Source: a virus
Lineage: Duplodnaviria; Heunggongvirae; Uroviricota; Caudoviricetes
IMG/VR virus record: IMGVR_UViG_2565956711_000012
DNA: 29,461 bases
Strand: one strand, 5' to 3'
The notes under the pieces were generated by a model. That model was not told the origin of the DNA. It saw nothing but the letters and a program-made list of their open reading frames with translations, and searched no databases. Positions within the stretch are counted from its first letter, which is position 1. Each line of letters opens with the position of its first letter. This document shows, in pieces, positions 11,962-25,481 of this stretch. The position numbers and the translations under genes were made by a program.

Positions 11962-11989
11962 TTTTTAAACCTCATTCAGGTTGGGTTTA

Positions 11990-12010
11990 AAGGAGGGTTA
12001 ACCCCTCCTT
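11990..12010 (-). other. GC-rich stem-loop between the major capsid gene and the next gene (possible attenuator)
   Basis: AAGGAGGG-TTAAC-CCCTCCTT: 8-bp perfect stem around an HpaI-like GTTAAC centre; no strong U-tract. Confidence 0.4.
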
Positions 12011-12941: not shown

Positions 12942-13898
12942 TTATTTCTCCTGCTTACGAACGGAAAGGAATTCTTCTTCGCTGATGCCCATATGGCGGC
13001 ACATCGCGAGGTCTTCGTCAGAAAGCGAGGCATGACCTTCGGTGCTTTCTTTTTTGGTCGTCGTGGTCTTGCTGACAATGACCGGTGCCGCTTTCACGAA
13101 TTCAGCAAACTGCTTGCGGCCTTCTTCAGAGCGGCAGGTGGCGAGATACATTTCGCGGTTGGCCGGTGCGACTTTCCCCGCCTCGATGGCGCTGTCCACC
13201 AGTGCTTCTGATTCTTTGATGGCAATATCATTGAGTTTGCTTTCAGCGCTTTCCGCACGGTTAAGTGCTAACTGGTGAGTCTCAACCGGAATGAACTTCG
13301 TCAGGTCGGGATTCTCAGCACGGTTAAGCGCCACCTGCTCGGCGGTCTTAATCTGCTGAATGGCTTTTACTGCGTCGTCTGCTGTGGCAGTGGCCGCGAG
13401 GCCAAGCACTGTCACAATCTGGACAGGTACGGTCATCGTGTTTTCCTCGGAGTTGAGTGCGGGTAAATCAAGGTTGGGTTTGTTGGTCAGCGCGGCGCTG
13501 GACAGGCGGGTAACCTGACCATCCGCTGTGAACCGAAAGGCCGGACTGTAATAGCGGTACTTCTTGCCGCGCAGCTGCGCCACGCCGTCATCAGTCCATT
13601 CAACGTGCGCCTCCACCACGCCATCACTGACGCGATAGCCGTCAATCCAGCCATAAGCCGGGGCTTCATCGCCTTTCGGGCCTTTCAGTTCGGTGGAGTG
13701 CTCGATATCAAAGGGGAGCTTTGGATAAGCCATCGAGGCACGAATGATGGCTTCAGGATTGTTGTTCACCCACGAACGCCCATCACGCCCTGTAAAGGTT
13801 CCCGCCGGTATCATCGGCAGCCATTCCGGCAATGCATCATCGGTAAGGTCAGGAAGCTGAAAGCAGAGCGCCAGCAATTCCGTATTGTTCGGGTTCAT
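12942..13898 (-). CDS. I: head maturation protease/scaffold, Mu I-like
   Basis: 318-aa ORF; N-terminal protease-like region followed by a long Ala/Glu-rich helical C-terminus (scaffold-like); precedes the capsid gene. Confidence 0.8.
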   Translation of the reverse strand: MNPNNTELLALCFQLPDLTDDALPEWLPMIPAGTFTGRDGRSWVNNNPEAIIRASMAYPKLPFDIEHSTELKGPKGDEAPAYGWIDGYRVSDGVVEAHVEWTDDGVAQLRGKKYRYYSPAFRFTADGQVTRLSSAALTNKPNLDLPALNSEENTMTVPVQIVTVLGLAATATADDAVKAIQQIKTAEQVALNRAENPDLTKFIPVETHQLALNRAESAESKLNDIAIKESEALVDSAIEAGKVAPANREMYLATCRSEEGRKQFAEFVKAAPVIVSKTTTTKKESTEGHASLSDEDLAMCRHMGISEEEFLSVRKQEK

Positions 13899-13958
13899 GG
13901 TGTTGTCCGGTCACGTTGTTTACTTCCGGACAGTGTGGGGGGAAACGGGGACTCAGGT

Positions 13959-13974
13959 GGATTAACCGGCTTCA
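13959..13974 (-). promoter_or_regulatory. 16-mer TGAAGCCGGTTAATCC (copy 2, about 60 nt upstream of the I ATG)
   Basis: Exact repeat of the 16-mer upstream of the endolysin gene; here it lacks the hairpin partner and U-tract, so the shared element is not simply a terminator. Confidence 0.45.
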
Positions 13975-14042
13975 CTGTAAACGCGGCATGAAACCGCGTT
14001 TAAAACACGTTTAAAAACGCTGTGGCGCGTTTAACGATTTTT

Positions 14043-14061
14043 TGACGTGTCATCATGACGT
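14043..14061. repeat. direct repeat TGACGT-N7-TGACGT in the F-I intergenic region
   Basis: Plus strand TGACGTgtcatcaTGACGT; same hexamer pair with the same 13-bp phasing recurs at 12040-12058. Confidence 0.5.
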
Positions 14062-16457: not shown

Positions 16458-18040
16458 CAGAGTAATCCCCGCTGATTTTTAAGACCCCGTGTGATGCGGA
16501 CCTGACGGTGTTCATTACGCTCATCGGGGCGGGAAGGTTTCTTTAACTTGTGGACTTCATAACGCCGGCAGTCCTCGCGACTGGCGAGGAAACCGAGAAA
16601 AATAGCGATAGCGGAGTCACCGTGACGCTTGCGGCCATCGGTGCCGGTAGTGCGTGCATCATCAATGCCAGGTACGCCGCGATAAAGCTGAATAGCGCCG
16701 AGATCGGTGATCACATCTTCATGCTTTGGCAGTACCAGTTCATTGTCTTCGAATGCCGCACGGAACCGGGGCATGTTTTCCCGGTAGTATTTGACGGAAA
16801 GCTGCACCTGCTCAACTTCATCACCGTATTTTTCCGCCGCCTGTTCTGCCAGATACTGACCGTTACCCCGTGCATCGAGCTTGATGCCGTCGCGGCGGGG
16901 AAGACGATCACAGATATAAAACAGCGCCTGTTCCTGCTGTTTAAATGGCACATTGCTGAGTTCCACCAGGAACGGGACGTTGCGCGTCGTGTCATCGTTG
17001 ACTGTCACCGGCGCAAACACGGTCAGGTCACCGTTACGCGCAAAGTCCTCCCCCAGACAGTGGCGCAGGTTCTGCGGCAGTTTCTCCAGTTCGGGAAGTA
17101 CGACCGTCTCCAGCCATTCCTGCATGTCCACACGGCGCAGCCCGTCCGGCATCGCGTTAAAATCAGCCGTACCGGTGAAGCGCAGGACAACGGTCGGACC
17201 TCTGGCCGCGCGTTCGCGCAGGGAACGTGCGATATAGACGCCACCGCCGTTCTTCGGCTCGCAGTAATACTCCTCGCGGGCATCTTCCTCTGTGGCCGTG
17301 TCGCTCAGCAGGTTAGCCAGCCATTCCGCTTCGCCCTCCACAGACCAGACTTTTTTTGTGACCTGACAGATGCGCTGATACAGCCCCTCAGCAATGGCCG
17401 TTTCAATATCGACGTGATGGACAGAGTAGCGTTTTTTCCCGGCCCGGCTGTCGGTGATGATGGTGTTAAACAGGTTATCAATACCGTTGTGGGTGGAAAT
17501 AAGGCGAACATTATTCCCCCACATTGTCAGCGCCAGCGCCGCCTTGAGTACCGCTGCAAGGTCAGCCTGGAATGCGGCCTCATCAATGATGACGTTACCC
17601 TGCATACCACGCAGGTTCGACGGGTTAGACGACAGTGCTTTGATTTTGTAGCCACTGGCGAACTGGATGACATAGACCAGGATGTCTTTGTCTTCATCCT
17701 TCAGCACTTCTTCACCAATGCCAGACGCGGCGCGGTCATAGGCTTTCGCCCACATGGCACAGGCATCAATAAACTCACGGGCCATGTCTTTCGTCGTACC
17801 GACGTAGAACGTGTCGCACCCGCCGGCCTCCACCGACATTGAGCCATTCAGGGCCGCGTCAGCCGCTTCCGCCCAGGTCAGACCGGTACGACGCGACTTC
17901 TCGGCAATCTTCAGTTGAGAGGAATCAGCAATCCACCGCTTCTGGTAGGGAAGCAGTAGCTGGCTTTTGTCGAACTCACCCGACAGGATAGCCGCAGCGG
18001 ACTGACTGGTGAGTGTTCTGTCCGGCGTCATCGTCGTCAT
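16457..18040 (-). CDS. terminase large subunit (Mu gp28-like)
   Basis: 527-aa ORF between terminase-small-like and portal genes; acidic nuclease-like C-terminal half. Confidence 0.85.
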   Translation of the reverse strand: MTTMTPDRTLTSQSAAAILSGEFDKSQLLLPYQKRWIADSSQLKIAEKSRRTGLTWAEAADAALNGSMSVEAGGCDTFYVGTTKDMAREFIDACAMWAKAYDRAASGIGEEVLKDEDKDILVYVIQFASGYKIKALSSNPSNLRGMQGNVIIDEAAFQADLAAVLKAALALTMWGNNVRLISTHNGIDNLFNTIITDSRAGKKRYSVHHVDIETAIAEGLYQRICQVTKKVWSVEGEAEWLANLLSDTATEEDAREEYYCEPKNGGGVYIARSLRERAARGPTVVLRFTGTADFNAMPDGLRRVDMQEWLETVVLPELEKLPQNLRHCLGEDFARNGDLTVFAPVTVNDDTTRNVPFLVELSNVPFKQQEQALFYICDRLPRRDGIKLDARGNGQYLAEQAAEKYGDEVEQVQLSVKYYRENMPRFRAAFEDNELVLPKHEDVITDLGAIQLYRGVPGIDDARTTGTDGRKRHGDSAIAIFLGFLASREDCRRYEVHKLKKPSRPDERNEHRQVRITRGLKNQRGLL

Positions 18041-19256: not shown

Positions 19257-19546
19257 TCCCGCGCACGTGGTTTTTTGACGCCGGGGACCGTCGCCAGCCC
19301 GAAGGCCACATCTTCACCGCGTCCTGTGATGCCGGCGACGTAACACCCGGAGACATCTGACAGGGTGACGAGTCCCTGTTCACGTAGCCACGCAAGGAGG
19401 GTGCGGACGGTGTCACGGGAAACCCGATGGCCGTAAGTCTGAAGGCAGGTCTGTAGAATGGATTCGTTTGCACTGTCTCCGCACTCCACCAGTGAGCGCA
19501 GAATGACCAGTCGCTGGTCGCTGTTGAGGATTTCTTGCATGCTCAT
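19253..19546 (-). CDS. small winged-helix-like DNA-binding protein candidate
   Basis: 97-aa ORF; pattern QRLVILRSLVECGDSANESIL...VSRDTVRTLLAWLREQGLV resembles winged-helix regulators. Confidence 0.4.
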   Translation of the reverse strand: MSMQEILNSDQRLVILRSLVECGDSANESILQTCLQTYGHRVSRDTVRTLLAWLREQGLVTLSDVSGCYVAGITGRGEDVAFGLATVPGVKKPRARE

Positions 19547-19552
19547 AGCCTC

Positions 19553-19858
19553 TTAATTTTTTTCCTTCAGTTCGTTTTCCAGCAACAGATCGCTGATACG
19601 TGTGGCCTGCCGGAGCATTCCGGAGAACTCCCGTATTTCGCCGCGCAGGTTGCTCATATCCAGTTGCAACTGGTGGAGTTCCTGCCGTGACGGCATCCCG
19701 TCGATGGCCTTTTCAAGTGCACTCATCCGGCTGTTAACTTTCTCCATCTCTTCCCGGCGGGCATAGGTTTTCACCAGCAGCAGGTGGATAATATTGATAC
19801 CGGACATCAGTCCGGCCCAGATGACAGCCCAGTTACTTCTTACGGTTTCCCATTCCAT
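19553..19858 (-). CDS. membrane-anchored coiled-coil protein (Mu gp25-like / DUF2730-like; lysis-associated)
   Basis: 101-aa ORF; N-terminal hydrophobic segment WAVIWAGLMSGINIIHLLLV followed by a heptad-rich coiled coil. Confidence 0.5.
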   Translation of the reverse strand: MEWETVRSNWAVIWAGLMSGINIIHLLLVKTYARREEMEKVNSRMSALEKAIDGMPSRQELHQLQLDMSNLRGEIREFSGMLRQATRISDLLLENELKEKN

Positions 19859-20065
19859 TTATGCCGTCTCCCTGAGTGTCTGGCAGTCAATGCAGGTCAC
19901 GGCATCCGGCATGGCCGCCAGTCGTTTAGGGTCAATTTCGTCACCACAGTCGTTGCAGTGACCTGGAGTATCAGGAGATTCTTTAACCCTGTTTAACAGG
20001 GCATTTAATGCCCGTTCACGGTCTGCCATCTCAAGGCCGCTGGCCTTGTCCAGTTCATCCGTCAT
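19859..20065 (-). CDS. TraR/DksA-family C4 zinc-finger protein
   Basis: 68-aa ORF with C-x2-C ... C-x2-C (CNDCGDEIDPKRLAAMPDAVTCIDCQ), the TraR/DksA signature. Confidence 0.75.
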   Translation of the reverse strand: MTDELDKASGLEMADRERALNALLNRVKESPDTPGHCNDCGDEIDPKRLAAMPDAVTCIDCQTLRETA

Positions 20066-20670
20066 TTACCCGCCGCCATCGTTTTGTGTTTGCTGGATTT
20101 GCTGTACCGGGCGAACCCGTCAAGGGTGCGAAAACCGAGATACCCGAGCGCCGGTGTCGCCAGCATGAGTGCGATATCCCAGTCCGGTGATGGCATGGAG
20201 AAGGCATGACCAAAAGCACCGGATACCGCGCCAGCCTGCTGACCCACTGACATCAGCATCACATACGCAATGCTGCTGTAGAGCGACAGCCTCGCCATCA
20301 GCGGCCTGGTCTGACGGACATATTCATCCGTGGCGTTGTCCCCGTTACGGATGGTTTCCTGCTGTTCATGGTGGGCAGCCTGACGGTCAGCCAGTACGGC
20401 TTTGTCCCGCTCAAGCTGGAATTGCTCAATCTGGACTTTTAGGGACTGGAGCTGGACGAACTGTTCTGGCGGCAGCGCCGCCAGTTTCTGCTCAAGCACC
20501 CGCTGCTGGTCCTGCGGGTTGATGACGCTGTTGACGTTCTCAACGATCCCCGCCACAGAATCTGCCGTTCTGGCGGTGTCGCCACCGAACCAGCCTCCCA
20601 CGGTACGCAGTAATGACGGTCCGGCCTTCATCAGAACGGAGGCAATGGTGGTGAGGGTTACTGGATCCAT
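20062..20670 (-). CDS. putative holin-like membrane protein
   Basis: 202-aa ORF; soluble N-terminal region and C-terminal hydrophobic segments (YSSIAYVMLMSV; IALMLATPALGYLGF); lies in the lysis block. Confidence 0.4.
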   Translation of the reverse strand: MDPVTLTTIASVLMKAGPSLLRTVGGWFGGDTARTADSVAGIVENVNSVINPQDQQRVLEQKLAALPPEQFVQLQSLKVQIEQFQLERDKAVLADRQAAHHEQQETIRNGDNATDEYVRQTRPLMARLSLYSSIAYVMLMSVGQQAGAVSGAFGHAFSMPSPDWDIALMLATPALGYLGFRTLDGFARYSKSSKHKTMAAGK

Positions 20671-21065
20671 ACAAGCAGCCCCTTACGTGCAACCCACTGA
20701 CAGAACAGAAATCCTGTGGCTGCGCCGAGTGGTTCAAGGACAAGCAGGTACAGCGGGCTGGCATAAAGTGGACTCAGGCAGATAAGAACGAACCCAACTC
20801 CCCAGACAACCCACGACCAGAAACATGCATGCCGGCTGATATGCATTTCAGGTTTAAGAAGCCTGTAAGGCAGATTGCCAAGAAAGATGCTGAACCCGAC
20901 CAGGACCACACCGGACAACGCCAGCCACCAGACCATAAATGCCTGGCGGCCTGAGAAACTACAGATGAACAGCGACAGGCCGACGAGAATGACAATGCTC
21001 CATCCGGAGCGCAAAACCTGTACCAGTGCCAGCTTTAACCAGTCACAGCTAAACGATTTAAACAT
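20658..21065 (-). CDS. polytopic inner-membrane protein (lysis block; holin/antiholin candidate)
   Basis: Start chosen at internal ATG (MFKSFSCDWLK...) which overlaps the upstream stop as ATGTTTAA; about four hydrophobic helices; the longer ORF-track version (to 21236) overlaps the upstream gene out of frame. Confidence 0.45.
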   Translation of the reverse strand: MFKSFSCDWLKLALVQVLRSGWSIVILVGLSLFICSFSGRQAFMVWWLALSGVVLVGFSIFLGNLPYRLLKPEMHISRHACFWSWVVWGVGFVLICLSPLYASPLYLLVLEPLGAATGFLFCQWVARKGLLVWIQ

Positions 21066-21276
21066 TGTGTTTTTCCTTGTATCGCTGGCATTGCCAGACG
21101 ATGTCTCTGATATCGACGGATGACCAGCCGCGCATGTAGTAACTGGCGTGTGTACCGTCATGACCTGCATAACTTGTCGGAACGGGGACGGGGCCACCTG
21201 CCATTCGGTGAAGAACTTCCTGCCGCAGCCGGTCACGTCGTCCCTGTTTCAGCGAAGCGTCCCATCCCTTGCCCAT
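21058..21276 (-). CDS. small hypothetical protein translationally coupled to the endolysin
   Basis: 72-aa ORF whose ATG lies 1 nt after the endolysin stop; GC-rich; no recognisable motif. Confidence 0.35.
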   Translation of the reverse strand: MGKGWDASLKQGRRDRLRQEVLHRMAGGPVPVPTSYAGHDGTHASYYMRGWSSVDIRDIVWQCQRYKEKHNV

Positions 21277-21277
21277 A

Positions 21278-21868
21278 TCAGCTCCGGGCTACCGAATAGC
21301 GGACACCGGAAATCTCACGACAGGCGTCAGCGAGGTTGTCCAGTCGGTTAAACCAGCCGTTGAGGAACTTGCCCTGTGAAGGATTTGATTTGATGATGTC
21401 GGCGTAATAGCGGGAACGACGCAGAAATAAACGGTTCAGCAGCCAGTCAGGGTCAGCACCTTCAACGGCTGCGCGGGTGTTTTTACCGGCGATACCATCA
21501 ACACTTTTGCCGGTGAAACCCGCAGCTTCCTGAAGCAACTGGACAGCCTTTTTGACGCCATGCTGGACGGCAGAGTCAAAGGCAAACAGGGCTATATCAT
21601 CCGGCCAAAACTGGCAATACGCGGGATACCAGTAGTCACGGAAGTAAATCTGTCCGGCCTGTTCAACCGTTAAATCACGAATACGCGTATCAGGCTTGCC
21701 ATCGCCATTAACGTCGGTCATGCCATCGGCAACACCGTCGCGTTTATCTGATATACCGAAGTTGGTTTCACCGCCACGGTCAGTGGGGTCATTGACATAT
21801 CCGCGTTCTGCGCTGAGCACGAAAGCAAGAGCATTGCGAAATGCGGGAGAATCGGGGGTGTTGTTCAT
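21278..21868 (-). CDS. endolysin, GH108-type N-acetylmuramidase with C-terminal peptidoglycan-binding region
   Basis: 196-aa ORF; N-terminal ERGYVNDPTDRGGETNFGIS matches the GH108 catalytic motif as I recall it; no signal peptide or SAR segment; AGGTG about 7 nt upstream of ATG. Confidence 0.75.
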   Translation of the reverse strand: MNNTPDSPAFRNALAFVLSAERGYVNDPTDRGGETNFGISDKRDGVADGMTDVNGDGKPDTRIRDLTVEQAGQIYFRDYWYPAYCQFWPDDIALFAFDSAVQHGVKKAVQLLQEAAGFTGKSVDGIAGKNTRAAVEGADPDWLLNRLFLRRSRYYADIIKSNPSQGKFLNGWFNRLDNLADACREISGVRYSVARS

Positions 21869-21919
21869 AAAACGGCACCTTTGGAAGTGGGTTAGTTTTC
21901 CCTTCCATCATGTGCCGGA

Positions 21920-21946
21920 CGAAAAAAAAGCCGGATTAACCGGCTT
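21920..21946 (-). terminator. intrinsic terminator ending the early (mor-moron) transcript
   Basis: Minus-strand RNA: AGCCGG-UUAAU-CCGGCU stem-loop followed by 8-9 U; located 30-50 nt after the moron stop. Confidence 0.65.
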
Positions 21947-21948
21947 CA
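21933..21948 (-). promoter_or_regulatory. 16-mer TGAAGCCGGTTAATCC (copy 1, about 64 nt upstream of the endolysin ATG)
   Basis: Identical 16-mer occurs again at 13959-13974, about 60 nt upstream of the I ATG; candidate late-activator site. Confidence 0.45.
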
Positions 21949-21978
21949 TTCAATGGATATAACTAGCGAATTCACTCA

Positions 21979-22488
21979 CTATGCTTTTCGTAAATCGCAG
22001 GAGTAAGTAACTGACTCCATAACTTTTCGAATAGTGGCTCGTAATTCCATTCCAGATGTAAAACCTGATGCTGAATAAGAGTCGTCTTCTCTTCTATTTG
22101 CCGTCGCTTTTGTAAAAATCTCAGCAACTTGATTGATTGAGTTTTCTGAGTCTTTCTTTCCCGTCACCCCCTCTACGAGTTTTACACATTGATTAACAGC
22201 AGCCAGTGATTCACCGTCAATATCTTTACCACTTGAAAACACCATTGCTGTAACTGCATCTGTACCTAATGCCCAAACGGTACTTACAGTGGAATCTTCA
22301 GTTGTTGCTGTATAAACCTGAACACCATCAACTATGGCTCCTTTTTTCCATTCTGTTTTTTTCAGGACACCCATTTTATCAAATTGAGAAATAAGCTTTT
22401 CATTACCTGTTAGTTCATCTTTATCGAAAAAATAGTGATACCCCCCAACTAAAATAACGGCCAGTATTAATGCATCAGTAAATTTCAT
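21979..22488 (-). CDS. moron: membrane-anchored or secreted protein of unknown function
   Basis: 169-aa ORF; N-terminal hydrophobic stretch (FTDALILAVILVGGYHYFF); clearly AT-rich compared with flanking DNA; GGAG about 7 nt upstream of ATG, inside the end of mor; followed by an intrinsic terminator. Confidence 0.6.
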   Translation of the reverse strand: MKFTDALILAVILVGGYHYFFDKDELTGNEKLISQFDKMGVLKKTEWKKGAIVDGVQVYTATTEDSTVSTVWALGTDAVTAMVFSSGKDIDGESLAAVNQCVKLVEGVTGKKDSENSINQVAEIFTKATANRREDDSYSASGFTSGMELRATIRKVMESVTYSCDLRKA

Positions 22489-22491
22489 ATG

Positions 22492-22902
22492 TTACTCCCT
22501 GCCAAATAAATCCAGTTGATGCTTGCGGTGCTCTAGTTTACGCATGCGTCTGATGGCTTTATACACCGTTTTATAGGTAACACGGTAACGCTCAACCAAC
22601 TCTGTGATGTTTCTGCCATTGAAATCACGCCAGATTTTCATATCACGAATCAATGACTCAAGAGTCTGGCCGCGTGGGAAATAAATCTGCATACCGCCAA
22701 TCTGACAGCTAATCGCGTAAACCAGCTCCAGAGAGATACGTGGGTCAACGCCATGCTTTGTCAGTTCGCCACGCAGCAGCGTATTCAGTTCTGTCAGCAG
22801 TGCAGGGAAACGCACTGTTTCCGCCGAACTGTCATCGTCCAGGTGCTCCAGAATGCTGTCATCCTGGATATCACCAAACAGATCATTCTGCTTTTCGCTC
22901 AT
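22492..22902 (-). CDS. mor: middle-operon regulator Mor (Mor/C family transcription activator)
   Basis: 136-aa ORF; DLFGD near the N-terminus, FPALLTELNTLLRGEL, IRDMKIWRDFNGRN and C-terminal HTH YKTVYKAIRRMRK match Mor as I recall it; sits right after the gemA-like gene as in Mu. Confidence 0.8.
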   Translation of the reverse strand: MSEKQNDLFGDIQDDSILEHLDDDSSAETVRFPALLTELNTLLRGELTKHGVDPRISLELVYAISCQIGGMQIYFPRGQTLESLIRDMKIWRDFNGRNITELVERYRVTYKTVYKAIRRMRKLEHRKHQLDLFGRE

Positions 22903-23426
22903 GTGCGCACCTTTCTTACTTTACTGGAATACAGGCTGTTGATGGCGTCATAACCCCGATTATCCTGAAATGCCAGGTCTCGCGGACTCAGCGCCTCTGT
23001 CATTTCTCTCAGATGCCATTGCTTGAGGCTTTCCAGCACCATCAGAAGATTATCGCCACGGCACCATGCCAGGCTGGCGATACCTTTACCTTTGTTGGTT
23101 CTGACAGTCATCTTCGAGACGAACGTATCCAGTGCGGTATCGCTGCCATCACGGATAAACCCATCAAGATGCATCTGCCGCCAGATGCTGCGAACCTTTG
23201 CGGTGATATCTGTTTCACGATGACGGCGAGCCGGAGAACGGGGGCGAGTACGCCTGAATCCCTTATCCTCCAGTACCTTCAGTACATCCTCCAGTTGGCC
23301 GACCTTCAGATCACGACAACTTTGCTTTCCCGTTACGCGATAAAGCACTGAACGGTAGGTGTCATCGTCCAGCTGTAGATTGCGACGGGCAACATGGATT
23401 AACTTAATCAGGGATGCGCGGCTCAT
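22899..23426 (-). CDS. gemA: GemA-like early protein (Mu gp16 position, DUF1018-like)
   Basis: Start set at internal ATG (MSRASLIKLIHVARRNLQLDD...); stop overlaps mor start by 4 bp, as for gemA-mor in Mu. Confidence 0.5.
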   Translation of the reverse strand: MSRASLIKLIHVARRNLQLDDDTYRSVLYRVTGKQSCRDLKVGQLEDVLKVLEDKGFRRTRPRSPARRHRETDITAKVRSIWRQMHLDGFIRDGSDTALDTFVSKMTVRTNKGKGIASLAWCRGDNLLMVLESLKQWHLREMTEALSPRDLAFQDNRGYDAINSLYSSKVRKVRT

Positions 23427-24114
23427 CGTTACTTCCCTCCGTCTGGCGGTCAATGCGCTCAATTTCTGCAATCAAAAGCGCACATGCTTTCACTAAATTT
23501 CGACGATAGTCTGATGGTTTGAAACTGTCATCATGCCAGTCAGCAGGCCAGTATTCTTCAGCCGCCAAAGGCTCTATGTAACTGATAGCCGCTGCGGCCA
23601 GCTCACCTTCAATATATGTGTCGTCCTGCTGTTTGGTGTATCCCTTAACCGATGTTTGCCGCTGGCGCTCGGCCAGAACATCAGATGTTGCTGGTGACAG
23701 TGAAAGCGATGGCGGTGCGGCTCCAATAGCTTTGCCCAGATCGTTGTTTTGCTTTTCCAGACATTCGATACGGTCTGCCTGCTGATTGATGTGATCATCC
23801 TGAGCGGTGTTAGTGCGTTCCTGTTCAGCTATGCGTTTTTGGGCCTTGACCAGTTCATCCGCCAGTGTCCATTCTGATTTTGACAGGACGTCTATTTCAT
23901 CCAGCAACAATTCCACGACTTCAAGAGTGAAACTGCGCTGGGTCTCATTGATAGTTTTAAGACGATTAATACTGGTATCGGGGCCAAATGGCGGCATTGC
24001 TTTACGTTTGCAGATATCGTCACGTATCTGCTGGATATTGATAATCGTATGCCTAGTCATTCGCTTAAACTCCATATTTAGTTGCCTGCGGGTGCACGAA
24101 GCCCCGGCAGGCAT
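23404..24114 (-). CDS. hypothetical early protein with central coiled coil (start uncertain; internal ATGs possible)
   Basis: 236-aa ORF between gam and the gemA-like gene; no recognisable motif. Confidence 0.4.
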   Translation of the reverse strand: MPAGASCTRRQLNMEFKRMTRHTIINIQQIRDDICKRKAMPPFGPDTSINRLKTINETQRSFTLEVVELLLDEIDVLSKSEWTLADELVKAQKRIAEQERTNTAQDDHINQQADRIECLEKQNNDLGKAIGAAPPSLSLSPATSDVLAERQRQTSVKGYTKQQDDTYIEGELAAAAISYIEPLAAEEYWPADWHDDSFKPSDYRRNLVKACALLIAEIERIDRQTEGSNDEPRIPD

Positions 24115-24149
24115 GCCGTATTAAAATTCTGAGAATCAAAGAAAGTTAA

Positions 24150-24677
24150 TTAATCAGTTACAGTTTGTTCAAATGGGATTATTTCAAAATCCTCAACATC
24201 TGATTTAATGGATATTCCTGCAATTCCCTTAACTTCATTCGGTGATGCAAGAATTGCCTCTTTGTTTATTTCCTCTTTATTGCGAAGAAATTTACCCAGA
24301 CTAAATTTTTTGAGTAACGCAATAACATCTTCAACTTTGCGAATAGTGACGCTGGGTGGTCGTTTACGCCAGCGAACCTCACCCGTTGTCAGGTTAGCAG
24401 TCTTGGTCTTACCGTCTTTGGTCAGTTCTGCACGGTTAGCTTCACACCATGTCTGAACGCCAGCCTGCAAACGTCCAAGCTCTTTTTTAAGCGCTTCAAT
24501 GCCGGGCGCAACATCATTTGTCAGGGCCGCTATTTTGTCATTCAGTTCCGTTTCACGGCGCAGAATGACACGGGTAATATCGCCAATCTTGCGGATGTCG
24601 CTGATTACGTCATCGCGGCATTGAGGAACGGCGACAGCAGCGGCTGATTTTGCGCGGGGCTTTTTGGGTGCTTTCAT
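24150..24677 (-). CDS. gam: host-nuclease inhibitor Gam (Ku-like DNA end-binding protein)
   Basis: Start at internal ATG (MKAPKKPRAKSAAAVAVPQCRDDVISDIRKIGDI...; cat at 24675-24677). Motifs KSAAA, RKIGD, TWCEANRAELT, VKTANLTTGEVRWR, IIPFEQ agree with Mu Gam as I recall it. Confidence 0.75.
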   Translation of the reverse strand: MKAPKKPRAKSAAAVAVPQCRDDVISDIRKIGDITRVILRRETELNDKIAALTNDVAPGIEALKKELGRLQAGVQTWCEANRAELTKDGKTKTANLTTGEVRWRKRPPSVTIRKVEDVIALLKKFSLGKFLRNKEEINKEAILASPNEVKGIAGISIKSDVEDFEIIPFEQTVTD

Positions 24678-24948: not shown

Positions 24949-25239
24949 TTAATTACCTTTATAAATAATGTTAAATACCTGACTGCGAGACATTTCCATT
25001 TTTTCGGCGATAACCGATATGGTCAGTCCCTCCCTGTAAAGTTCACGACACAAATATGCGTCGTCTTCATTTCCCGCTCTGATGCGTAGCGAAAGGCCCT
25101 GCCTAATGGCGCAATTCTGCACTGACTGTTTAGAGCGCCCCAGTTGCAGTGCCAGACCGCTTACACTTACCTTTCCCGCGTTCTGTTCAAGAATGCGGAG
25201 TTCTTCACGTGACCATGCTCTCCCCGTACTCCAGCCCAT
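24949..25239 (-). CDS. small HTH DNA-binding protein (GcrA-like N-terminal motif)
   Basis: Start set at ATG giving MGWSTGRAWSREELRILEQ..., preceded by GGAGG 7 nt upstream; the ORF-track start at 25263 is a TTG. WSREEL...GLALQLGRSKQSVQNCAIRQGL resembles GcrA-type HTH; second HTH-like segment LTISVIAEKMEMSRSQVFNIIY. Confidence 0.45.
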   Translation of the reverse strand: MGWSTGRAWSREELRILEQNAGKVSVSGLALQLGRSKQSVQNCAIRQGLSLRIRAGNEDDAYLCRELYREGLTISVIAEKMEMSRSQVFNIIYKGN

Positions 25240-25241
25240 AC

Positions 25242-25481
25242 TTACCTCCAGATAATCCGGCAACCTTCCAGACTGGCTACCCAGACGGAGCGGGTGCCGC
25301 CGTTGTGTGTTTCTGATATACGGGATGCACTACGCACCAGCTCTGTTGGTGGGCAGACAATCTCCAGTAACGGGCGACGCATGAAAACCCGAACGTCAGT
25401 GACACGGCTACCACGGGAGCGAAGCCAGTTCTGCGCCGCCTCTGCCATGCTGATGTGTTCTGCAATACGTTCAGTAATCAT
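25242..25481 (-). CDS. small early protein at the position of Mu kil (function unknown)
   Basis: 79-aa ORF starting a few nt after the B stop; identity with Kil not established. Confidence 0.35.
   Translation of the reverse strand: MITERIAEHISMAEAAQNWLRSRGSRVTDVRVFMRRPLLEIVCPPTELVRSASRISETHNGGTRSVWVASLEGCRIIWR

Follow-up and report, generated by a model that had tools for sequence, protein, structure and literature searches.

Putative Mor-dependent promoters ahead of the late genes of a Mu-like prophage that encodes no C activator

In phage Mu, the promoter Pm drives a short middle operon whose last gene is C; the C protein in turn activates Plys, PI, PP and Pmom, using boxes different from that of Pm. 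How, then, could the late genes be switched on in a Mu-like prophage where no C gene lies between mor and the endolysin gene lys? The question is raised by a viral sequence of 29,461 nucleotides (IMG/VR record IMGVR_UViG_2565956711_000012; the whole of this stretch is called the window here). A prediction made from its letters alone had noted the lack of C between mor and lys and of a second Mor/C-family open reading frame (ORF) anywhere in the window, and had proposed that Mor acts directly, that a non-homologous activator hides among the small late ORFs, that C is encoded outside the window, or that the protein called Mor is itself the C orthologue. The analysis presented here makes it quite probable that the lytic cascade of this prophage has two steps in place of the three of Mu, with Mor activating the late promoters directly.

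On the minus strand of the window, from 29461 down, the gene order is repressor, ner, transposases A and B, gam, gemA and mor, and 3' of mor lie the lysis, packaging, head and tail genes of a Mu-like prophage. A 4.7-kb query (window 19500-24200) was 99.9% identical to the chromosome of Escherichia coli ECONIH5 (NZ_CP026202.1), in which the element spans about 441150-473115, is inserted in narX and measures 32.2 kb. The complete prophage was rebuilt from ECONIH5 so that searches reached beyond the window ends. To look for C, we translated the whole 32.2-kb prophage in six frames and searched every stop-to-stop segment of 15 aa or more (1157 in all). The queries were three proteins (Mu Mor, Mu C and the Mor of the window) and a hidden Markov model derived from 80 homologues together with the Mor and C proteins of Mu and Yersinia. 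The sole Mor/C-family match was 22492..22902 (E 1e-70), and no second member was found in any frame of the whole prophage, the next best match having an E value of about 2. The original prediction had suggested such a profile search, including small ORFs and the region past the window start; it found only Mor. This confirms that the prophage encodes no C late activator, either within the window or past its ends, so that the option of a C gene outside the window is closed. Inspection of the flanks agrees with this: in ECONIH5, the 2.3 kb past the window start hold the tail fibre gene, Tfa, an invertible segment and a Gin-like recombinase, followed by the narX remnant, with no Mor/C match. No com/mom module was found in the ECONIH5 prophage, which stops right after the Gin-like recombinase. 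The prophage splits narX of this strain into two fragments, one of them annotated as a pseudogene.

The sites of C were also looked for. The strict C-box pattern TTAT-N5-6-ATAA had two exact matches in the prophage, both in coding regions (the portal and gp46 genes), with none near the late intergenic regions and none in Klebsiella phage Kp4866-3 (OK490420, an unverified record). This test is weak because, among the known late promoters of Mu, the same consensus recovers only Pmom, its remaining exact matches lying elsewhere. The arrangement of the Mu-type three-step cascade, with a C paralogue ending a middle operon, is absent from the prophage.

We characterized the single Mor/C gene to ascertain which of the two activators it represents. 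The two genes concerned are:

22899..23426, minus strand: gemA, gp16 family (PF06252, E 3.9e-32; RefSeq 'gp16 family protein')
22492..22902, minus strand: mor orthologue, 136 aa, bearing the helix TVYKAIRRMR (PF08765)

The product of 22492..22902 matched the Mor profile PF08765 with an E value of 3.6e-31 and 107.8 bits (cut-off 24.9), over profile positions 2-107 of 107. Proteins of the Mor/C family are about 100-150 aa long, acidic in the N-terminal half and basic in the C-terminal half, with a helix-turn-helix (HTH) at the C-terminal end (PMC2582627), and the 136 aa of the window protein comprise a D/E-rich N-terminus, a K/R-rich C-terminus and a partial HTH_28 match at residues 95-122. It was 64% identical to Mu Mor (170 bits) and 38% identical to Mu C (85 bits), Mu Mor and Mu C being 37% identical to each other. 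The start codon of mor overlaps the stop codon of gemA (ATGA), and this direct succession places the gene at the end of the early operon, the position of mor in Mu. A cryo-EM study of C has identified S110, Q113, Y115, Q116 and R120 as the HTH residues that contact DNA; at the aligned positions, Mu Mor and the window protein alike carry T, T, Y, K and R, and the helix TVYKAIRRMR does not differ between them, which fits recognition of the same box. On these comparisons 22492..22902 is a Mor orthologue. The possibility that a C orthologue had been taken for Mor is ruled out by the difference in identity (64% versus 38%), by the position after gemA and by the Mor-type HTH residues.

The interval between mor and lys contains the following elements:

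21979..22488, minus strand: moron, a low-GC ORFan of 169 aa
21935..21950, minus strand: Mor box A, AATGA-AGCCGG-TTAAT, predicted equivalent of Mu Pm -51..-36
21919..21947, minus strand: terminator-like hairpin GAAGCCGG-TTAAT-CCGGCTTT plus T-run (terminator scan, RNA fold)
21907..21912, minus strand: -10-like hexamer CATGAT of a predicted Mor-dependent lys promoter (Mu Pm offset)
21278..21868, minus strand: endolysin gene lys, GH108 plus PG_binding_3 (Pfam)

The moron starts 3 nt past the mor stop codon and lies upstream of the terminator. Its GC content is about 39% and its product has an N-terminal hydrophobic helix, with no Pfam, PHROG or PADLOC family and relatives in only 3 protein clusters in 5.8 billion; its AlphaFold2 model, of fair confidence (predicted local distance difference test score 78), gave no fold match in the PDB at E < 0.001. 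At this place E. coli CAVP776 encodes an unrelated 107-aa membrane protein, and other relatives have no gene. This is a genuine moron slot inside the early transcription unit. Past the moron, conserved sequence restarts exactly at ATGAAGCCGGTTAATCCGGCTTTTTTTTCG, that is, at the hairpin that the original prediction had called a terminator (RNA fold -14 kcal/mol, z = -2.7). The same hairpin element is present in Mu, where the sequence immediately 3' of mor is AAAGCCGGTTAATCCGGCTTTTTTT.

In order to compare this element with Pm, the register of the Mu promoter was derived from KMnO4 and mutation data in later papers of the Howe laboratory and from footprint data. The T residues reactive to KMnO4 at -12, -4, -1, +1, +3 and +4 fit one position only in the region, which gives a unique +1 for Mu Pm, and with this +1 the bases at -57 (G) and -54 (A) agree with those given in PMC4390567. 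The Mor element consists of 5-bp arms around a G/C-rich spacer (5+6+5 bp), with the Mor dyad at -51..-36 of Pm; in Mu it reads AGTAA-AGCCGG-TTAAT, and the -10 hexamer is TATCCT. The 19-mer AAGCCGGTTAATCCGGCTT has the same letters in Mu and in the window, where 0.01 matches would be expected by chance with up to three mismatches. Letter for letter, Pm also has the core box AAGCCGGTTAAT and the hairpin terminator that overlaps it. In the window, the last base of box A lies 66 nt before the lys ATG (21868). The distance from the last T of the box to the start of CATGAT is 23 nt, exactly as for TATCCT in Mu, and a -35 is missing in both. The predicted start of the lys promoter would thus fall near 21899, 31 nt before the lys ATG. 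We scanned the whole prophage with an 18-nt position weight matrix (PWM) from which the 3' hairpin arm was left out, and box A scored 28.1 bits as compared with a maximum of 20.0 in the null of 200 shuffles. These results suggest that the interval carries a predicted Pm-type promoter overlapping the early terminator, as in Mu, the hairpin and T-run being an intrinsic-terminator-like element that closes the early operon and overlaps box A. The statement that the interval holds only the moron and a terminator is thus correct as to the presence of both, but it misses that the hairpin overlaps a predicted Mor site and promoter of the Pm type.

The PWM scan also disclosed two further sites, and its top three scores were all on the coding strand:

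13961..13976, minus strand: Mor box B, AGTGA-AGCCGG-TTAAT (29.2 bits)
13932..13937, minus strand: -10-like hexamer CACACT near box B (offset from the box)
12942..13898, minus strand: head protease/scaffold gene I, first gene after box B (RefSeq 'phage protease'; phmmer)
2564..2579, minus strand: candidate Mor box C, AGGGA-AATCGG-TTAAT, inside the baseplate V gene (2411..2953)

Box B is placed in the 209-bp gap before gene I, with its last base about 62-63 nt before the gene I ATG (13898), and CACACT begins 24 nt after it. Boxes A and B are therefore 16-bp elements standing before -10-like hexamers at the Mu offset, with no -35 and with their centre at about -43.5, the arrangement expected of sites for a Mor orthologue. 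Neither the 3' hairpin arm nor the T-run accompanies box B in the window or in several relatives, so that its conservation does not stem from a terminator function. The third score (20.2 bits, 2581..2564) corresponds to box C, whose position does not change in 78 of 80 related viral contigs. Its wobble bases are fixed as the box requires: of 55 distinct contexts, 52 use GGG, the codon after the next has G in third place throughout even though the amino acid is T, K, S, A, R or M, Val is encoded only by GTA or GTT, and Asn only by AAT. Wobble positions on either side of the box are variable, with entropies of 1 to 1.9 bits. This pattern points to selection on the DNA sequence itself, which makes a third, internal promoter likely; it may serve the distal baseplate and fibre genes. 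A match on the plus strand at 7322..7334 (CAAGCCGGTTAAC) was rejected, as it lies at the tail chaperone/tape-measure junction beside another hairpin and has a low PWM score.

Other structures were seen near these genes. Upstream of box B, at about 14000..14060 on the minus strand, two hairpins rich in TTTAAACG resemble the G-I intergenic region of Mu (AAACGCGCCAC...TTTTTAAAC), the site of the strong gyrase site of that phage, and an equivalent of the gyrase site may be conserved there. After the major head gene, the hairpin AAGGAGGGGTTAACCCTCCTT at 11985..12010 (minus strand) has no U-run and may be a partial terminator or an RNA-stability element. An Rfam scan of the window gave no match.

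The distribution of the boxes was surveyed in 94 loci with a Mor homologue, of which reference genomes supplied 14 and IMG/VR 80. In the 15-16 loci with C, which belong to true Muvirus, there was exactly one Mor box, starting about 10 nt past the mor stop codon, with E18 next, either directly or after a GH108 homologue. In nearly all of the 79 C-less loci, box A was followed by a GH108 lys homologue within 72-94 nt. Of the 68 C-less loci with sufficient flank, 63 had a box B before the gene I homologue, and it was missing from all 10 loci with C whose downstream sequence was long enough (Fisher p = 2e-9, the lineages not being independent); in the C-less loci its PWM match started 75-80 nt before that homologue. 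Mu itself has no Mor box above 14.6 bits besides Pm, as against the three of the C-less clade, where the extra ones belong to gene I and the baseplate gene; Kp4866-3 also has three, of 26.4, 24.9 and 22.8 bits, the last being the counterpart of box C. The sequences thus establish the identity, number, strand and spacing of the boxes as well as their conservation across the clade. The TTAAT/TAAAT variant of boxes A and B was mostly concordant within a genome, with six discordant loci, and was not used as evidence.

This conservation bears on two other explanations. The first is that the prophage is defective, the middle operon with C having been deleted and replaced by the moron, and the late genes being no longer switchable. 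A foreign low-GC gene does occupy the place of E18-E19-gp20-C of Mu, the element is 32 kb long as compared with the 36.7 kb of Mu, and com/mom is missing. Nevertheless, the late ORFs are intact, the C-less layout recurs in about 79 loci of many genera and in Kp4866-3 (the unverified phage record), with or without a moron, and the Mor boxes of gene I and the baseplate gene are exclusive to the C-less lineage and would be pointless in a dead element. We therefore regard a defective prophage as extremely unlikely. The second explanation takes the element before lys as a terminator only, as the original prediction did, with the late genes reached by read-through or antitermination of the early transcript. 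The hairpin and its U-run would indeed make a good terminator. However, footprints at Mu Pm identify this very 16-bp element as the Mor site, and the box recurs without a hairpin at gene I and within a coding region. Moreover, among 51 distinct box A contexts, 98% had A as the second base and 98% had T as the sixth base of the hexamer at -13..-8, a -10-like pattern kept at a fixed offset, and the A2/T6 pattern was found at -13 or -12 in all box B contexts. Taken together, these observations leave very little probability to the terminator-only explanation.

The genes downstream of box A allow a comparison with the middle operon of Mu. They are, in order, lys (GH108), the E18 homologue, two genes of unknown function, a TraR-like zinc finger gene, a DUF2730 gene (gp25 homologue), a gp26 homologue and the terminase gene. 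Two of them deserve mention here:

21058..21276, minus strand: Mu E18 homologue (phmmer versus Mu proteins; phrog_2121)
19859..20065, minus strand: TraR/DksA-type zinc finger (PF01258, E 7e-13; phrog_54)

E18 is the first gene of the Mu middle operon. In two Muvirus contigs of IMG/VR (L075 and L083), Pm is followed by a GH108 homologue, E18, gp20 and C, and then by Plys and the Mu endolysin gene, and Yersinia vB_YpM_5 (L003) has ORFs of matching sizes in the order GH108-E18-gp20-C. Some true Muvirus thus have a GH108 lys homologue at the head of the middle operon besides the usual Mu endolysin after C, a gene labelled by homology in L075 and L083 and deduced from ORF sizes and order in vB_YpM_5. 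The lys-E18 block is therefore colinear with the front of the Mu middle operon, which makes box A a positional orthologue of Pm. Mu differs in that C (plus Plys and its own endolysin) is interposed.

It could also be argued that a non-homologous regulator replaces C or works together with Mor, be it the TraR/DksA protein, an unannotated small ORF or an HTH protein encoded at 24949..25263. The prophage does encode several small proteins of unknown function, among them this last one (HTH_23, E 4e-7), and the TraR/DksA family is a class that acts on RNA polymerase. Yet the TraR-like gene sits within the late operon and is weakly similar to Mu gp24 (E 5e-5 in a single comparison), which occupies the corresponding position in a phage that still requires C; for this reason the TraR/DksA protein was rejected as a substitute for C. 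No link between the HTH protein and late control is known, and the Mor box is the only strongly repeated element in the late intergenic regions, no further shared motif being needed. An activator among the small late ORFs, as had been proposed, thus finds no support, the TraR/DksA protein having been the one obvious candidate, and we judge an additional or substitute regulator unlikely. The HTH gene itself is an early ORF of 104 aa on the minus strand that is missing from the ECONIH5 RefSeq annotation but annotated in a close relative (L007).

We believe that direct action of Mor, the first of the options of the original prediction, is the one that fits the evidence, with Pm-type boxes before lys at the spacing of Mu, before gene I and probably in the baseplate V gene; such direct action would also be anticipated for the majority of Mu-like phages. 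In this scheme, Mor would be made as the last conserved product of the early operon (ner-A-B...gemA-mor), with one moron gene after it, and the early operon would stop at the hairpin terminator 21919..21947. Mor would then bind the 16-bp box, by way of the two 5-bp arms around AGCCGG and centred about 43.5 bp upstream of the start, and would recruit sigma-70 RNA polymerase to promoters that have a -10 but no -35, as at Mu Pm. Box A would drive lys, the E18-like gene and the lysis and packaging genes, and box B would drive I, T and the head and tail genes, while the weaker box C would probably boost the distal baseplate and fibre genes. A C paralogue would be dispensable. We infer that Mor binds to these boxes and that transcripts start there, and the three alternatives discussed above are disfavoured because of the clade-wide conservation, the boxes without hairpin and the occurrence of a TraR-like counterpart in C-dependent Mu.

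Several points weigh against direct activation by Mor. All of its functional steps are deduced from sequence. The left arms of the boxes (AATGA and AGTGA) differ from that of Mu (AGTAA), and the -10 hexamers are poor, although this is expected of activator-dependent promoters. The terminator hairpin that coincides with box A could alone explain the conservation of that box. Box C lies in a coding sequence, has a score at the edge of the null (20.2 versus 20.0 bits) and lacks a clean -10 (GATAAA or ATAAAT). Finally, the locus counts overstate the number of independent observations, since the relatives are phylogenetically related.

With respect to known systems, the prophage resembles the genus Muvirus (Mu, D108, SfMu and Yersinia vB_YpM) in its Mor orthologue encoded after gemA, in its Pm-like site and in the E18 homologue among the first downstream genes, to which some Muvirus add a GH108 homologue. 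It differs from Mu in that its predicted Pm-type promoter opens straight into lysis and packaging genes. A C-less layout has been described before in SuMu of Haemophilus parasuis, Mannheimia 3927AP2 and phiMhaMu2, which have lys right after mor, no C and no com-mom, and in which the late activator was left open with a call for experiments (Niu et al. 2015, PMC4553209). The window prophage shares with these phages the single mor, the GH108/PG_binding_3 lys following it without C, the absence of middle genes and the absence of com-mom. In contrast, the Mor of the Pasteurellaceae phages is distant (that of Pasteurella phage AFS-2018a is about 33% identical), and the SuMu type has no counterpart of the 169-aa moron that stands between mor and the lys promoter in the window prophage. 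The cognate box could be assigned here because the Mor of this prophage is close to that of Mu. In AFS-2018a (L184), a single-Mor phage, a 26-nt repeat, TCTTTAAA[C/G]CACTTTAAAATC, occurs at 9607-9632 and 16817-16842 and precedes both the lysis gene and the head peptidase gene, a layout that suggests the same logic with a different box. The same gene order as in the window is found in Kp4866-3 and in related Enterobacterales prophages of IMG/VR. Kp4866-3 has one Mor, 71% identical, and its three Mor boxes are at homologous positions, but the nucleotide identity is about 71% over the aligned mor-lys parts (51% of the query) and a different gene, of 110 aa, occupies the moron slot.

The absence of C is less unusual than the original prediction had implied. 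In a tblastn search of 50,697 phage records, two Mor/C places were present, among the matches listed, only in Mu, D108, SfMu, PhiR68_1 and Yersinia Mu phages, and the Mu-like phages of Vibrio, Pseudoalteromonas, Shewanella, Pasteurella, Pseudomonas, Burkholderia and Klebsiella had one each, again among the matches listed. A single Mor/C gene is thus the rule in Mu-like phages outside the genus Muvirus and, since the adjacency of mor and lys without C had already been published (PMC4553209), the lack of C is ordinary for such phages. In the searchable literature, we did not find Pm-type Mor boxes assigned to the late units of the enterobacterial C-less clade, and we consider this assignment a useful but unsurprising refinement.

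The sequence of the window Mor also prompts a tentative idea on the origin of C. MuC has recently been shown to require the beta sliding clamp, by way of two clamp-binding motifs, one at each terminus, of which Mu Mor has only the N-terminal one (PMC12867686). The window Mor carries both an N-terminal QNDLF (22882..22896) and a C-terminal QLDLF (22492..22515), the latter being the canonical beta-clamp motif QL[SD]LF, whereas the corresponding C-terminal ends are QPDLF in MuC and QPSLL in Mu Mor. A Q..[LM]F sequence near the C-terminus was found in at least 53 of the 79 C-less Mor proteins. By motif matching only, the single activator may thus combine the DNA specificity of Mor with the clamp coupling of C. 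It is conceivable, though we hold it as a tentative and somewhat doubtful idea, that the Mor-only two-step cascade is ancestral, with the single Mor also carrying the coupling to replication, and that the C gene of Mu is a lineage-specific duplicate of mor. If this were true, C would have split a single Mor-driven late operon into the 'middle' and 'late' units and would have taken over the downstream boxes, and late transcription in the C-less lineage would depend on the sliding clamp through Mor.

In practical terms, a C gene should not be expected when Mu-like prophages are annotated, and a hairpin after mor should not be annotated as a terminator only. With three predicted promoters and an activator that shares 64% identity with a protein of known crystal and cryo-EM structure, the window prophage offers a simple system, with which it could be probed how the specificities of Mor and C diverged and whether clamp-coupled late transcription belongs to single-activator phages. 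The textbook cascade from Mor to C to the late genes is specific to the genus Muvirus, and the closest Enterobacterales relatives of this prophage appear to run all their late units with one activator and one type of box.

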